From a virus: a stretch of 64,000 nucleotides of DNA. Position 1 is the first letter of the stretch. Every line of letters starts with the position of its first letter. Under the pieces are notes generated by a model that saw only the letters and a list, made by a program, of their open reading frames with translations, was not told the origin of the DNA and did not search any database. The DNA lies in IMG/VR virus record IMGVR_UViG_3300035698_012898, positions 1 to 64,000 of that record. One strand, 5' to 3'. Positions 3,036 through 18,215 of this stretch are shown here, in pieces. The translations under genes and the position numbers were made by a program.

Positions 3036-3296
3036 CTACACCATTCTCCGAATAAACGGCAACCCACCCATCTCCTTCTCATACAACACCGTAAAGGCAG
3101 CTAGCACAGCACTCTGAACCTTCAACACACCCTTCTTCTGTCTCTGCCACCGATACATTGTTGACGTACTAACGGACATCTGATGCGCGAGTTCGTAGTC
3201 CGGCCACCCGGTTTTAGCACGCAACTTTCGCAAAGATTCCGAAAGCCCGACAACCCTAATCCACATACGGAACACCTCCTCTCTTATCCGGGCCAA
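3036..3296 (-). CDS. Cro/CI (XRE)-type HTH DNA-binding protein
   Basis: LRKLRAKTGWPDYELAHQMSVSTSTMYRWQ. Confidence 0.75.
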   Translation of the reverse strand: MARIREEVFRMWIRVVGLSESLRKLRAKTGWPDYELAHQMSVSTSTMYRWQRQKKGVLKVQSAVLAAFTVLYEKEMGGLPFIRRMV

Positions 3297-3775
3297 TTAT
3301 CACGGACCCACGCCACTGCTATACGAACACGGTTCGTTGACACACCAAAACAAGCACCCATCCTACTAACAGTTGGAAGCCTTCTACCTTTGTCCATACC
3401 AAAGACCTTAAACGACCATGCCCAATACAACTCAGGTCGTGCAATGATCTGCAAGATAGCCAAACAAACGCCATCATCAGTCTGCCCACGCAGGTATTCA
3501 ATGGCGTCGTGTATAACCGTACGACGCATAACTGTCTGACAAAACGCGCAAGGCCAGTCCTCCCTCGTCAAGCCTACAAAACGCTTCTCTCGACGTAACT
3601 CCATACCAACAGCACTCCGTACTACACGCCGCACATAACCAGACTCCGGGTCTAACGCTTGGTCCGGCGCATACTGCAATAAACGGCAGCACGTCTCCTG
3701 AGCAACGTCTTCACGCAGCCGAGCGGGGATTGACGCCGTAGCCTTAGCCAGGACATCCAACAGCGGGATACTCAA
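3284..3775 (-). CDS. Sigma70/ECF-like transcription factor
   Basis: Region-2-like REDVAQETCCRLL..YVRRVVRSAVGMELRREKR and C-terminal HTH (MGACFGVSTNRV); probable TTG start overlapping the upstream stop, GGAGG RBS. Confidence 0.55.
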   Translation of the reverse strand: MSIPLLDVLAKATASIPARLREDVAQETCCRLLQYAPDQALDPESGYVRRVVRSAVGMELRREKRFVGLTREDWPCAFCQTVMRRTVIHDAIEYLRGQTDDGVCLAILQIIARPELYWAWSFKVFGMDKGRRLPTVSRMGACFGVSTNRVRIAVAWVRDNWPG

Positions 3776-4386
3776 AGCGCTTCCTCCTCTCCAAGACTTT
3801 CTTCCATGCAACCCAATGGCTCCTCAGCTTCTTCCGGCACCACACAAGGTGCCTCTTCTAAGGCAGCCTCACGCATTGGAGACACGTCACCCAACACACC
3901 GCCCTCCGGGATCACTTTGCCGTTGACCCGTAAGGGCCGGACGCCTGCTTTGTTTGGCGGCGCGTTACTATATAGAATCGTAACTGCCTCGTCACCCATT
4001 TCCTGTATTGCCATGCGTGCGTCTCGTGCCAGCAACTCGACAGTGTCACCCTCTACGGCCTCAAGCATGGCAATCAAGGAATCTACCTGGACAACAACGC
4101 CCGTTTCCCTAATTCCGCCGCTAACAGACAGTTCACGCACGTAAAAAGCCGCGGCGGAACCAAGACGATCTTCCATAAGCCTTTCATCGCGCAGCAACAT
4201 CGTTACCCCATGAGGACACTTTTCCTCAACAGCGCTCGCACGAACACCACGTGCCACCAAAGCGCGTACTGGAGACCCATCATTGCTTATGGCAATCACG
4301 CACGCATCGCCATACTCATAAAGGTCAACGCAGGCTTTTCCGTCTTCCCCACGTGGTAGGTTAAATATCATATCCGTCACGTTCAT
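3772..4386 (-). CDS. Hypothetical protein
   Basis: ORF tightly packed between helicase and sigma-like gene, GGAGG RBS. Confidence 0.7.
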   Translation of the reverse strand: MNVTDMIFNLPRGEDGKACVDLYEYGDACVIAISNDGSPVRALVARGVRASAVEEKCPHGVTMLLRDERLMEDRLGSAAAFYVRELSVSGGIRETGVVVQVDSLIAMLEAVEGDTVELLARDARMAIQEMGDEAVTILYSNAPPNKAGVRPLRVNGKVIPEGGVLGDVSPMREAALEEAPCVVPEEAEEPLGCMEESLGEEEAL

Positions 4387-12036: not shown

Positions 12037-12345
12037 CTAGCGGTCGCCCCATCCAAGCAAGTCAGAAATCACACCGGGCAGATAGCCGATCTGTGTGCCT
12101 TCACTCAAGTACAAGATGTCCGGTTCGTCGCCGTCCTTGAACTCGAACTTCGGCGAACCTTGCTCACTTTCCCATTCTCGTGCATGCGCATTCCGCGCTG
12201 CCTCTTTACGAGCATCTTCATCAACAAGGATAACCTCGTTGATACTATACTCCATTGCCCAACGCGGCTGCATTGCAAGCCGAACCTTAACGTCATCGTC
12301 TAGGCCGTCAAGCTCTTGCCGAAGGCCACCTACCGTGATACTCAT
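12037..12345 (-). CDS. Small acidic early hypothetical protein
   Basis: CAGGAG RBS; ITVGGLRQELDGLDDD.KVRLAMQP.W pattern common in phage small proteins. Confidence 0.8.
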   Translation of the reverse strand: MSITVGGLRQELDGLDDDVKVRLAMQPRWAMEYSINEVILVDEDARKEAARNAHAREWESEQGSPKFEFKDGDEPDILYLSEGTQIGYLPGVISDLLGWGDR

Positions 12346-12359
12346 TGTTCTTTCTCCTG

Positions 12360-13455
12360 TGTTTGCCGTTCTTTCTTGTAGTCATTTTATGAACGGAATC
12401 TCACCGTTGTCAGGCATGGCCCATTTAAAAGCGCCCCACTGATTTCCCGCAGCGACGGGGTTCCATACAAAAGCAGATTCCATCACTAGAATCTGACCCT
12501 CTTTTCGGGCTACCGACTCAGGGATTATTGCGCATGGGGACTTGTATGCGCGGACTCTCGATTAAGACGTTCTAGGGGCCCTGTCACCAGATTAGGCAGG
12601 CGTTTGCCGTCACGGCCATCGCTCATACTTCGAGGCGCGGCCACCGGCGGTACCTGCTGTACCCTGTCTCTTTCCTCTGACAGTCTACATAAAATGACTA
12701 CAAGAAAGAACGAACAATGTCTTCCTCTCGACACCCTATCCAAACCAAACAAGGCGTCTAGGGGAAGACGTTGCTTAGTAGGACCAAAGTCCGTTCACCA
12801 ACGCCCTTCCTCGCGCTATTTCTACACGTTCATTCGCGTGAGCTTGCACCGTTGATGCATCCCAAAGATTGTTGTCCATCGCCGTACCGCTTGACCGGGC
12901 TCCATCTATCCGATGTGCCCTGTCCTGCCGCTACGTTCTACATGCTCACCGATTCTCGGCGACCGATTACCACACTGGGTGACCCCGTTACGCTGTCTGC
13001 CTCTGGTACTCGACGTACACTATGGGCTGCCACGTTTTTTGCAGTAGGTTTGGTGTCGTTCACCGGAAGCTGTCTGGGCTGTTGGCACTCGACGCGCGCT
13101 TATCCCTGCCACTTCCGTCCTCCAAACCGCGTCCCGAACTTCATTCCCGCTCTGGGCACCCGACTGGATTGCGCTGTAACCTTTCTACTGCTTCGAGGTA
13201 GGTCGTCCGCCAGACGTTAATGCAACTCCATCTATCAGATGTGTTGCATCTTAATAGCCCGACGATTCTCCGAGGGCTGTCTGACCGATGTGGTCTGCCG
13301 TCCTCGTTCTTGAGCACGCAACGATGACTGGCTCCTATAGCCTCGTCATCTTCTGCGAACCGCGTCCGCTTTGTTTCCCTATGCTTTGCAGCCCCGTTTG
13401 GGAGCCTGCGCCGCTACCAGCCTGCCGTGTCCTGTAAGGAGCGGAGATGCTAACC
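12360..13455 (-). ncRNA. Candidate large structured non-coding RNA region
   Basis: About 1.1 kb with no credible minus-strand ORF in a gene-dense genome; many nested stems with purine-rich loops on the minus strand; a duplicated hairpin module; downstream of the early promoter. Confidence 0.6.
12367..12712. repeat. Perfect 25-bp inverted repeat enclosing 296 bp
   Basis: CGTTCTTTCTTGTAGTCATTTTATG (12367-12391) / CATAAAATGACTACAAGAAAGAACG (12688-12712). Confidence 0.97.
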
Positions 13456-13634
13456 TTACCCGGCCTCTTTGACAAGCCTTCTCGCTGATTCATATGTCAA
13501 TACGTTGTCGCTTGCTAGCGACCCTATCGTCGGCGGAGTACCGTCCTTCGCCCCACCGACCGCTTCAATTGTCTTGGCCTGCCTTGTCAAGTGCCGTGGG
13601 CCAAACCGGCACGACCGCCCGAAGGCGGTTTCGG

Positions 13635-13871
13635 CTACGTCGTATATAGAACATACCATTCATTGTTATGCACACGAACCTGATACGTGCCGTCACCATG
13701 ATCACGTAGCCGCGCAAAGTCAAACCGAAGCCAGATCGCCTTTGCTGCATCACTTGGACAGTCCTCCCCGCGGAAGCAATTGCTAAGCGTATACGCAATA
13801 CACCGAGTGACCGATCCGAAAACCTCGTCAATCTTCTTTGTCCTATTTTTCGCTATCGTTCTTACCTTCAT
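13635..13871 (-). CDS. First early gene, hypothetical
   Basis: CAGGAGG RBS, ATG 13871 (MKVRTIAK...), immediately downstream of promoter. Confidence 0.75.
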   Translation of the reverse strand: MKVRTIAKNRTKKIDEVFGSVTRCIAYTLSNCFRGEDCPSDAAKAIWLRFDFARLRDHGDGTYQVRVHNNEWYVLYTT

Positions 13872-14025: not shown

Positions 14026-15078
14026 TCACGTCAATGCCAGCCGTTTAGCCGCGCGAATGACATTAAAAAGAACGTCCCTAGGACTCCCTCCAAGGTAAGT
14101 ATTTTCCGCAGCGTCATTTATAAGAGGGGTCCATGGCCGTGACAGCAAGACGTTTGCACATCCCGCGTCCACAAGACTCCTTGCTACCATCTCCGCTGCT
14201 TCATCCGCACCATAATCCAACGCCACAATTATCCTTGTAAACCTTTGCGTCAACGTCCGCGCTTGAGCACCAGATACCGTACTCCCCAGCAGCGCCACTG
14301 CCATACCGGGCAGAGCAAGCACATCCATCGGACCCTCGACCAGCACGATTAACTTCCGCACAGGATGCACAGCATGCAGCCCATACACCGTCCCGCCTTT
14401 GCCAACACCAGGAGCATGATAACTCTTTGTCGGATACCCTTTACGCGTGCCTTTGAAGTCCGTAGTGCGCGTTGTCCAATGTACGAGCCGATCATCCTTG
14501 TATTCTGGAAACACAATGTGACCTTGGTAACGATCACCAATAGGCTTCCGTTCTACAAACAAAAGCCCATACTGTTGATAATGGGCGGGACCGAAGCCCC
14601 GCCCATGGAGATAGCGACGACCTTCCATTGCAGAAGGTGACGCGATGGGAACACATCCAAGAGGCAACAACACAGTTGGTTGTTCACCTTTCATTGGCAA
14701 AGCCGCCTTCAGAAGAAGACGCATACCACTTTCTAATGGACGATGATCATCTACCCATAGCTTAGCATACTGTCCTTGTCCAGATACTAACTCTGACGCA
14801 CGTTTAATAGCATCGTCTCTCGTAAGCTGTTCCAAGTCCATCAGCAAGCCGACAAGATTCCTCGCATATCCGCAACTGAAACAGTGCACCACTGCTTTCC
14901 GCACATTAAAGTATAAATGCCCAAGCGTCCCGCAAGAAGGGCAATCCGAAATCATTTCATCAGGATTCCCGGATGATACTGCACCAAGTGTCTCCTCACC
15001 AAAGTCTATCATGCAATCTGTAGCAACCCCCATAGGCGTTCCACCAATATACATATCCGCATCGCCTACAAAGCTCAT
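14026..15078 (-). CDS. DNA primase (Zn finger + Toprim)
   Basis: CPSC..HLY..HCFSC; LVEGPMDVL, ALLG, ALDYGAD; likely start at ATGA overlap with helicase stop. Confidence 0.9.
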   Translation of the reverse strand: MSFVGDADMYIGGTPMGVATDCMIDFGEETLGAVSSGNPDEMISDCPSCGTLGHLYFNVRKAVVHCFSCGYARNLVGLLMDLEQLTRDDAIKRASELVSGQGQYAKLWVDDHRPLESGMRLLLKAALPMKGEQPTVLLPLGCVPIASPSAMEGRRYLHGRGFGPAHYQQYGLLFVERKPIGDRYQGHIVFPEYKDDRLVHWTTRTTDFKGTRKGYPTKSYHAPGVGKGGTVYGLHAVHPVRKLIVLVEGPMDVLALPGMAVALLGSTVSGAQARTLTQRFTRIIVALDYGADEAAEMVARSLVDAGCANVLLSRPWTPLINDAAENTYLGGSPRDVLFNVIRAAKRLALT

Positions 15079-16472: not shown

Positions 16473-16723
16473 ACGCCATTAGCTCCCATCGCTTTTGCTA
16501 CTTACTATCTCCAAAGTTTCGTAGCCCGCACTATATACCCCCTCATACTTTATCTCTTATATGATCTCCTTTATTGTATACCGTATACACCATGTATACT
16601 TCTTTTTTTCTTAACAACTTTACCAAAAAGACTCTACCTATAATAAGCGTTTTGGAAGGGAAAGTTGAACAAGTATTTTTGACTAAGCATAGCTAACGTG
16701 TTGCGGCGTATAGAGTTAGCGTC

Positions 16724-16750
16724 GGAAAAATATAAAGCGGCCTTTATATT
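16724..16750 (-). terminator. Possible terminator after lysis genes
   Basis: AATATAAAG-GCCG-CTTTATATT then TTT, directly after holin-like stop. Confidence 0.4.
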
Positions 16751-17870: not shown

Positions 17871-18215
17871 TTATTCCCCCGATGAAGATGTCTCTTGTTC
17901 GACCTCCTCAGCAAGGGCAGCTTGTGCAGCAAGTGCTTTGGCCGTTACTTGCTGCTGCTGTTGTTCAGCAACAAGGGCAATGAATGTCCGAAGCGTACGG
18001 CCTGCTAACTGGATAGTAGCATGTTCATCCAAATAGCCTCTGTACCCTCCGTCAAGACCACTAGCTGAGGCTGTCTCCAGGATAAGCACAGCATCCGTTA
18101 CCGTCATGTTTGGAACTGGTAGGATACGATCTTCCTTAGCCATGTTCCAACAGATGACACCTGCAATCGTAGCCGCAAGAAACGCCACTAACACCATACC
18201 TAGAATCTGTTTCAT
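17871..18215 (-). CDS. Membrane-anchored/secreted hypothetical protein
   Basis: MKQILGMVLVAFLAATIAGVIC N-terminal hydrophobic helix. Confidence 0.65.
   Translation of the reverse strand: MKQILGMVLVAFLAATIAGVICWNMAKEDRILPVPNMTVTDAVLILETASASGLDGGYRGYLDEHATIQLAGRTLRTFIALVAEQQQQQVTAKALAAQAALAEEVEQETSSSGE

Follow-up and report, generated by a model that had tools for sequence, protein, structure and literature searches.

A probable variant hammerhead ribozyme opening a 1.3-kb gap between genes of an uncultured phage, and the large folded RNA that it may release

Introduction

The virus record IMGVR_UViG_3300035698_012898 of IMG/VR is a linear sequence of 78.7 kb (about 75% complete), whose bases 1-64000 constitute the stretch of DNA analyzed here (the window). 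On the minus strand, which carries nearly all long open reading frames (ORFs) of the window, a gap of 1.29 kb without any credible gene (13634-12346) lies downstream of a small gene of 78 codons, ORF78, and upstream of a gene encoding an acidic protein of 102 aa, ORF102. What does this gap encode, and how would its product be made? An initial annotation, based on the letters of the sequence, had proposed that positions 12715-13455 encode a large structured noncoding RNA, of the scale of GOLLD and ROOL, located at the very start of the early transcript and acting for example as a decoy or an anti-defense scaffold. The reading favored by the present analysis, with a probability of about one in two, is that a variant hammerhead ribozyme would cut a folded RNA, about 0.9 kb long and encoded by the gene-free stretch, from the upstream message. 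The arrangement would combine a type II, U3-A8 ribozyme from a known family with an internally duplicated, unclassified body. Coordinates are those of the window and those of minus-strand features are given from 5′ to 3′.

Results and Discussion

A putative type II hammerhead ribozyme at the start of the gap

A sensitive Rfam scan revealed a single notable match in the 64 kb, a type II hammerhead (Hammerhead_II, RF02276) with a U3-A8 core variant, on the minus strand at 13636-13573. This element, located at the start of the gap, is new and had been missed by the initial annotation. Its first bases overlap the TAG stop codon of ORF78 (13637-13635). It scores 31.3 bits for a cut-off of 37, and its E value is 5e-4 when 1.6 kb are searched, 0.021 for the 64 kb and 6.3e-6 for the genome. 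The cmscan alignment, which covers model positions 1-66, describes a three-way junction in which stems I and III are each capped by a hairpin and stem II is open, and the minimum free energy (MFE) structure of the isolated 75 nt (13640-13566) is the identical three-way junction. From 5′ to 3′, the element comprises the first strand of stem II (GCC/GGC, 13635-13633 / 13583-13581), G12-A13-A14 (GAA, 13632-13630), stem III with its UUCG loop (ACCGCC-UUCG-GGCGGU, 13629-13614, including A15.1-U16.1), C17 (13613), stem I (GUGCCG, a 10-nt loop and CGGCAC, 13612-13591) and the core UUGACAA (13590-13584, for a consensus CUGANGA). The core departs from the consensus at only two of its 13 positions, where U3 and A8 replace C3 and G8; GAAA, GUC (UH site), U4, G5, A6 and A9 are all present. 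The deficit relative to 37 bits coincides with these two substitutions and can therefore be attributed to the U3-A8 core. C3 and G8 form a pair, which covaries to U3-A8 in several natural hammerheads, and such covariants have been shown to be active in vitro (Perreault et al. 2011, PMC3088659).

Furthermore, UUGGCC of loop I (13604-13599) and GGCCAA of the 3′ tail (13579-13574), one nt past stem II, can form, at the canonical place, a pseudoknot of 6 bp, where a minimum of 4 bp is asked for between loop I and the residues that come right after stem II. Such a pseudoknot between loop I and the 3′ tail has been described for type II hammerheads (PMC3088659). Since it lies outside the covariance model, it provides independent support for the ribozyme. 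Besides this pseudoknot, the element shares with type II hammerheads (RF02276, PMC3088659) the GAAA, the UH site (GUC), A15.1-U16.1, G10.1-C11.1 and a location between phage genes. It differs from them by its core, UUGACAA and not CUGAUGA, which is a rare natural U3-A8 covariant (PMC3088659), and by its position, as it begins inside a stop codon and would head a 0.9-kb noncoding RNA and not a gene. Overall, this hammerhead is very probably genuine, and self-cleavage is predicted to occur between 13613 and 13612. A sub-threshold match to another hammerhead family, Hammerhead_HH9, was also found on the plus strand at 17937-17988 (22.3 bits vs 52, E value of 0.53); it is located on the non-gene strand within a coding sequence and is most likely due to chance.

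The ribozyme changes the view of where the RNA starts. The promoter noticed by the initial annotation is indeed a near-consensus sigma-70 promoter (TTGACT-17-TATACT, 13949-13921 on the minus strand, 10 of 12 matches), with the TG of an extended -10 element and an A-rich tract upstream. However, the RNA cannot be placed at the very start of the transcript: ORF78 (13871-13635, minus strand), preceded by a strong Shine-Dalgarno sequence (AGGAGG) and with a positive codon log-odds (+0.12), comes before it, and the hammerhead then gives 13612 as the likely 5′ end.

A gap devoid of coding signal

The noncoding character of the region was upheld by our analysis, whereas its limits were not: the ORF-free stretch covers 12346-13634 and not only 12715-13455. 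The longest minus-strand ORFs of the gap have 52-75 codons and none of them is preceded by a Shine-Dalgarno sequence, while the plus strand carries an ORF of 149 codons (12771-13220). When codon log-odds are computed with a model built on 24 long genes of the window, no frame is positive anywhere between about 12500 and 13600, and the plus-strand ORF scores -0.20 vs +0.12 to +0.25 for ORF78, ORF102 and the primase gene. Cys, Pro and Arg abound in the translation of this ORF, which is junk-like; as the plus strand is pyrimidine-rich, a long shadow ORF is expected there. Neither the small ORFs of the gap nor the plus-strand ORF has any Pfam or PHROG match at E < 0.01, and reading TGA as W, TAG as Q or TAA as Q opens no long frame in the gap, so that alternative genetic codes were rejected for the three codes tried. 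Hidden protein genes could be sought in the 149-codon ORF, in the several ORFs of 52-75 codons or in a recoded gene, but the codon log-odds are negative for all the candidates and these lack Shine-Dalgarno sequences, domain matches and any recoded long frame, which makes such genes most improbable.

Composition and folding of the putative RNA

The body of the putative RNA would extend over about 0.9 kb on the minus strand, from the ribozyme cut at 13612 to a terminal hairpin and U-rich tract at about 12700, and its size thus falls in the GOLLD/ROOL class, as initially suggested. Its composition departs from that of the neighboring genes. The core (13572-12851, minus strand) is poor in U (A 27.6, C 24.0, G 32.7 and U 15.8%) compared to the flanking genes (U about 26%, C about 19%), and the GC content of the region is 0.56-0.58 vs about 0.49 in the flanking genes.

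The 741 nt initially delimited (12715-13455) fold better on the minus strand than shuffled sequences, with an MFE z-score of -3.5 (20 shuffles) or -3.8 (40 shuffles), and better than ten coding controls of equal length from the same genome (z-scores of +0.6 to -2.0). The plus strand reaches a z-score of only -1.85, and the structure is therefore favored on the minus strand, as the initial annotation had assumed. Among 200-nt windows, folding is strong at 12601-12800 (z-score of -4.1) and at 13201-13400. Thermodynamics and word counts (see below) are supportive but not decisive. It should be added that the strongest local fold in a scan of 8-20 kb lies elsewhere, at 14501-14700 on the minus strand, within the primase coding sequence (z-score of -5.7 with 15 shuffles); it could correspond to a regulatory hairpin or result from noise due to the few shuffles. 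In addition, a promoter-like sequence (TTGTCA-17-TAGCAT, 9 of 12 matches) is present inside the noncoding RNA at 13447-13475 on the minus strand, just upstream of the start coordinate of the initial annotation, and could yield a shorter RNA from about 13440.

Duplicated modules that keep pairing

Since no orthologue was found, paralogous copies within the RNA constitute the only comparative evidence and stand in for covariation between species. All the helices and recurring words listed by the initial annotation were found on the minus strand. Among the helices, GGUUUGG/CCAAACC (13128-13122 / 13053-13047), CGGAAG/CUUCCG (13117-13112 / 13069-13064) and GCAGUAG/CUACUGC (13191-13185 / 13047-13041) were confirmed, the hairpin GAUGAC..GGCU/AGCC..GUCAUC (13350-13323) has a pair probability of about 1.0, and the two strands of the possible pseudoknot GACGCG/CGCGUC were located. 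Two of the proposed pairings are disfavored: UGGCA/UGCCA (13111-13107 / 13087-13083) exists in the sequence, but in the second copy it would include a C-A mismatch and the paralogues favor instead the helix GGG/CCC described below as Pb, and the CAGAC/GUCUG three-way junction competes with the helix of M1 copy 3. The recurring words CAGACAGC (three occurrences), CGTCGAGTRCCA, GGACGCGGTT and GAGAATCG (two occurrences each) are present. Their counts as such lie within the range of coding controls; what is exceptional is their placement in modules with pairing flanks.

These modules (M1, M2 and M3) are arranged in two paralogous domains on the minus strand. Domain A (13369-13219) comprises M3, the hairpin 13350-13323, M1 copy 3, the word GAGAAUCG and M2 copy A, whereas domain B (13136-12893) comprises M3, M1 copy 1, M1 copy 2, GAGAATCG and M2 copy B; GAGAAUCG occurs both in domain A and in domain B (12957-12950). 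The global alignment of the two domains has a z-score of 3.5, and 2 of 500 shuffles score equally high. M3 is a GGAC-GCG-GUUY hairpin found at 13369-13355 (with GUUC) and at 13136-13122. The sequence GAAUGAA also occupies two hairpin loops closed by different stems.

M2 is a hairpin of 32 nt. Copy A (13250-13219, pair probabilities of 0.96-0.98) has the outer stem GAUGCAAC/GUUGCAUU and the core CACAUCUGAUAGAUGGAG, and copy B (12924-12893, pair probability of about 1.0) has the outer stem GAC.GGGC/GCCC.GUC. The central 18 nt (CACAUCNGAUAGAUGGAG) are identical between copies save one base. By contrast, the outer stems display five differences per side and nevertheless keep pairing, four pairs being changed on both sides; 92% of the cells are paired vs 27-50% when the partner is slid. 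A covariance model built from both copies did not detect any third one in the 78.7-kb genome.

M1 has the layout Pa5′-GGCA-Pb5′ ... Pb3′-AGACA-Pa3′ and is present in three copies on the minus strand. In copy 3 (13306-13271), Pa is CGAGGAC/GCCCUCG (6 of 7 positions paired, with one A-C mismatch), Pb is GAC/GUC and the loop has 7 nt; in copy 1 (13117-13064), Pa is CGGAAGU/GCUUCCG (7 of 7 paired) and Pb is GGG/CCC with an insert of 25 nt; in copy 2 (13038-12987), Pa is ACGU/GCGU (4 bp) and Pb is GCC/GGC with an insert of 23 nt. The number of paired positions, out of 10, is 10, 7 and 9 for the cognate halves of copies 1, 2 and 3, respectively, compared to a mean of 5.0 for non-cognate halves. With one fixed criterion, the 741 nt contain three copies vs a mean of 0.005 (maximum of one) in 3000 dinucleotide shuffles, and the whole window contains five on the minus strand, including the three of this RNA, and none on the plus strand. 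Inspection revealed no tandem GA, and a reading of M1 as a k-turn was rejected on this ground.

Forcing all the module helices costs 5 kcal/mol of -344. Furthermore, U-G or G-U pairs occur in Pa and M2, and the terminal hairpin has five of them in 12 bp; since they would become A-C mismatches on the other strand, these structures belong to the transcribed strand. Overall, the core of the RNA has the appearance of one RNA domain that was duplicated in tandem long ago and whose stems would since have drifted under selection for pairing. Stems that diverged and still pair favor a functional folded RNA over protein-binding sites on duplex DNA.

This point bears on the possibility that the gap is a replication origin, in which the repeated words would be iterons or primosome signals, or in which the transcript would prime replication through an R-loop near DnaB and DnaG. 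The gap is directly downstream of two minus-strand genes, one encoding a DnaB-like helicase (16472-15075) and the other a DnaG/Toprim primase (15117-14026), and it combines words of 8-18 nt that recur with a strong promoter. However, it is GC-rich (0.57) and not AT-rich, Tandem Repeats Finder detected no tandem or regularly spaced repeats, and each word occurs just two or three times, in a collinear domain order; moreover, the sequences flanking the repeats form hairpins that include G-U pairs, an indication of RNA, and the cumulative GC skew has no turn in this region. An origin in the gap is consequently very improbable. The intergenic region 16500-16750, which separates the structural module from the DnaB gene, is AT-rich (34-36% GC) and folds weakly; it makes a better candidate than the GC-rich gap for promoters or an origin of replication.

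Points weighing against a functional released RNA

Several observations weigh against the release of a functional folded RNA by a hammerhead. The ribozyme match remains below the gathering score of RF02276 (31.3 < 37 bits). The 200-nt windows across 12901-13200, the site of two M1 copies, fold no better than shuffles (z-scores near 0), and perfect inverted 8-mers are depleted (0 vs 5.1 expected from shuffles). Recurring direct 8-mers are more numerous than in shuffles (17 vs 5.8) but reach 23-26 in coding controls, so that word counts alone are unexceptional. The modules were defined post hoc and the shuffle statistics are therefore generous, although the effect is still large. A search of the whole gap by blastn in distant mode against 50,697 phage records retrieved nothing and no orthologue of the RNA was found in any collection searched, so that all the reasoning stands on one sequence. 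Lastly, the AlphaFold models of ORF78 and ORF102 (predicted local distance difference test scores, pLDDT, of 49 and 57) are too poor for a fold search and provide no candidate for a partner protein.

Some of these observations would be expected if the gap were a non-functional spacer, i.e. decayed or acquired DNA merely transcribed through, with hairpins due to chance or relics and the hammerhead as the only functional element. A singleton without detected conservation, local z-scores near 0 over 12901-13200 and depleted inverted 8-mers all agree with this possibility, as does the fact that coding DNA of this genome also folds strongly at places (14501-14700). Nevertheless, phage genomes are gene-dense and no longer ORF-free stretch was read in the window. 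In addition, diverged copies still pair (M2 has four double changes, and Pa and Pb covary in the three M1 copies), which neutral decay would not keep, and the strand-specific composition (A in large excess over U) is unlike that of local coding DNA. A mere spacer is thus unlikely, and the balance tips slightly towards a functional structured RNA.

The 3′ side of the RNA and a 25-bp inverted repeat

On its 3′ side, the putative RNA would be bounded by a long imperfect hairpin (12775-12713, minus strand), which corresponds to the 21-bp imperfect stem of the initial annotation and consists of segments of 7, 12 and 5 bp (pair probabilities of 0.98-1.0). The presence of five G-U pairs in the 12-bp segment makes this hairpin specific to the minus strand. 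Together with the U-rich tract that follows, it would be a candidate 3′ end or terminator. The U-rich tract is itself the left arm of a perfect inverted repeat of 25 bp (arms 12712-12688 / 12391-12367, minus strand, pair probability of 0.96) that encloses 296 nt. Its right arm stops 21 nt upstream of the AUG of ORF102, an 8-nt extension (12719-12712 with 12352-12345) covers this AUG, and the left arm has an alternative partner of 13 bp at 12814-12802. Two further minus-strand elements were recognized there: a terminator-like hairpin (12495-12474) inside the segment enclosed by the repeat, and a promoter-like sequence (CTGACA-18-TAAAAT, 12413-12384) half within it.

No further copy of the repeat arm was found in IMG/VR or in 185,579 GTDB species genomes, and the 78.7-kb record does not encode any resolvase, tyrosine recombinase or reverse transcriptase. 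A mobile element such as a miniature inverted-repeat transposable element and an inverton are therefore both unsupported for 12367-12712, owing to the lack of further arm copies and of a recombinase gene in the record, which is about 75% complete. A retron (msr-msd) is likewise unsupported: the 25-bp repeat is present but there is no reverse transcriptase and the next gene encodes the acidic protein of 102 aa. The most economical reading is that the 25-bp stem may be a double-stranded RNA processed by RNase III or a stem masking translation. The repeat adjoins the large RNA and may not belong to it.

These control-like elements could also suggest that the whole region is a cis-acting intercistronic leader for ORF102 and the MoxR-vWA operon, in which the hammerhead would uncouple ORF78, the hairpins would tune stability and the 25-bp stem would mask translation or serve RNase III. 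The position of this stem just before the AUG of ORF102, with an extension that pairs with the AUG itself, the switch geometry provided by the alternative partner of the left arm, and the promoter-like and terminator-like sequences at the repeat are all in favor of such a leader, and hammerheads between phage genes are well known (PMC3088659). However, a leader needs far less than some 0.9 kb of U-poor, internally duplicated modules whose helices are compensated, and the composition shift ends at about 12850, before the control elements, which suggests two units. A control stem located downstream can coexist with an RNA that acts in trans, and a leader accounting for the whole gap is rather unlikely.

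Comparison with known RNAs and related sequences

The Rfam/Infernal scan suggested by the initial annotation found no known family of large RNAs, the only match, below cut-off, being Hammerhead_II. No Rfam family matches at gathering scores, which agrees with the initial annotation, where no tRNA, tmRNA, RNase P RNA or intron had been recognized. Even at E values up to 10, a scan of 12200-13800 gave no GOLLD, ROOL, OLE, raiA, intron, RNase P or tmRNA, and ARAGORN detected no tRNA gene in the 64-kb window. Since ROOL RNAs average 581 nt and many GOLLD members exceed 800 nt (PMC12286853, PMC5737381), the putative RNA resembles them by its size class, as well as by its phage origin, its lack of a known associated protein and its A/G-rich multi-domain fold. 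In contrast, it matches neither of their covariance models, is headed by a ribozyme and has a core duplicated internally in tandem; GOLLD and ROOL are often beside tRNA genes, which is not the case here, and they are by definition widely distributed, whereas this RNA is a singleton. Membership in GOLLD or ROOL was therefore rejected, as every test failed.

Other known systems were also considered and rejected: group I and II introns (no Rfam match, no RVT_1 domain in the 78.7-kb record), diversity-generating retroelements (no reverse transcriptase in the record), CRISPR- or ToxI-like arrays and other tandem repeats (no tandem array according to Tandem Repeats Finder), and circularization of the RNA by a phage ligase (a single ribozyme, and neither RtcB nor an RNA ligase in the record). 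CsrB and RsmZ are RNAs that sponge a protein through multiple sites with GGA loops. The putative RNA resembles them only in a possible way of working, as it carries several copies of a short motif, each on a helix of differing sequence. Its motifs (the GGCA/AGACA helix and the CACAUCNGAUAGAUGGAG hairpin) are unrelated to GGA loops and have only two or three copies each, and we do not claim membership in this group.

Searches for related elements with the motifs of the RNA gave little. In IMG/VR, ACATCNGATAGATGGAG gave seven chance matches, which show no further likeness or closing arms or lie inside ORFs; the closed M2 hairpin occurs at one of the seven occurrences of the core word, and that one is inside a gene. 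A pattern of three motifs gave no match in IMG/VR, one in metagenomes (inside an ORF) and one in GTDB genomes, both otherwise unlike the window, and a scan for the pattern CGTCGAGTRCCA..CAGACAGC gave no match. No published description of a large RNA headed by a hammerhead was found in the literature searched.

Genomic setting

Downstream of the gap, ORF102 (12345-12037, minus strand) has a Shine-Dalgarno sequence (GGAG) and a codon log-odds of 0.25. It has homologues of equal length and 35% identity in the Gordonia phages RedWattleHog and Stormageddon (E value of 7e-7) and is a real protein family; it is the sole gene of the neighborhood with relatives in these phages. It is followed on the minus strand by two small ORFs, an operon encoding a MoxR AAA+ ATPase and a vWA protein, and then by genes encoding an SNF2 helicase and a fusion of uracil-DNA glycosylase, exonuclease and PolA. 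The ORF of this fusion, at 1-1869 on the minus strand, runs off the end of the window and displays uracil-DNA glycosylase, 3′-5′ exonuclease and family A DNA polymerase domains (Pfam E values of 7e-26, 1e-12 and 2e-12). An ORF of 175 aa at 3284-3811 (minus strand) has a weak match to Sigma70_r2 (E value of 5e-4, below the cut-off) and may encode a phage sigma-like factor in the replication module.

This phage is very isolated. The relatives of its primase in IMG/VR are at most 29% identical, and a search of 5.8 billion proteins retrieved a single match to it, with 37% identity, on a 2-kb contig. Matches of the helicase and MoxR in GenBank phages (tblastn) do not exceed 33% identity, and a search of metagenome contigs with the helicase retrieved nothing. 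ORF78 has no match in Pfam, in PHROG or by tblastn in phages. Scans of IMG/VR with ORF78, ORF102, MoxR and the primase gave either nothing or identities of at most 29%, and the exact proteins are absent from a collection of 15 billion proteins. The neighborhoods of the Moorella and Gordonia phages display neither synteny nor a comparable gap.

A model for the release of the RNA and its implications

If the release of a folded RNA by the hammerhead is correct, the following sequence of events can be proposed. The strong promoter at 13949-13921 would drive transcription of ORF78, of the ribozyme and then of the long noncoding minus-strand stretch. Cleavage at 13613|13612 would produce an ORF78 message with the stem III hairpin at its end and a downstream RNA whose first base, with a 5′-OH, is that of the stem I hairpin. 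Extending from 13612 to about 12700, the released RNA, purine-rich, U-poor, GC-rich, folded and capped by hairpins, would be stable. Its three GGCA/AGACA helices, two 32-nt hairpins and two GGAC-GCG-GUUY hairpins would act as repeated docking sites through which it may bind a phage or host factor in trans while the replication genes are expressed. Because the repeated elements resemble multiple docking sites, a trans-acting scaffold or sponge is the role that we would favor, and it remains a speculative one, with the odds against it.

Few large structured RNAs of phages, such as GOLLD and ROOL, have been recognized, and a further example unrelated to them would matter. We tentatively propose that the gap may encode a new class of phage RNA, which would be released from a polycistronic early transcript by a variant hammerhead, contain a tandem-duplicated domain with an undescribed GGCA/AGACA motif and serve as a multivalent scaffold or decoy, as one case of a wider pattern of excision by hammerheads. 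If true, a class in which a ribozyme makes the 5′ end would join the known ones, and the ribozyme itself would be a further natural instance of the U3-A8 covariant of the hammerhead core. The repeated modules, i.e. the 32-nt hairpin and the M1 helix, would provide handles for finding partners of the RNA. More generally, it would suggest one concrete job for the many unexplained phage hammerheads, that of freeing stable noncoding RNAs from operons.

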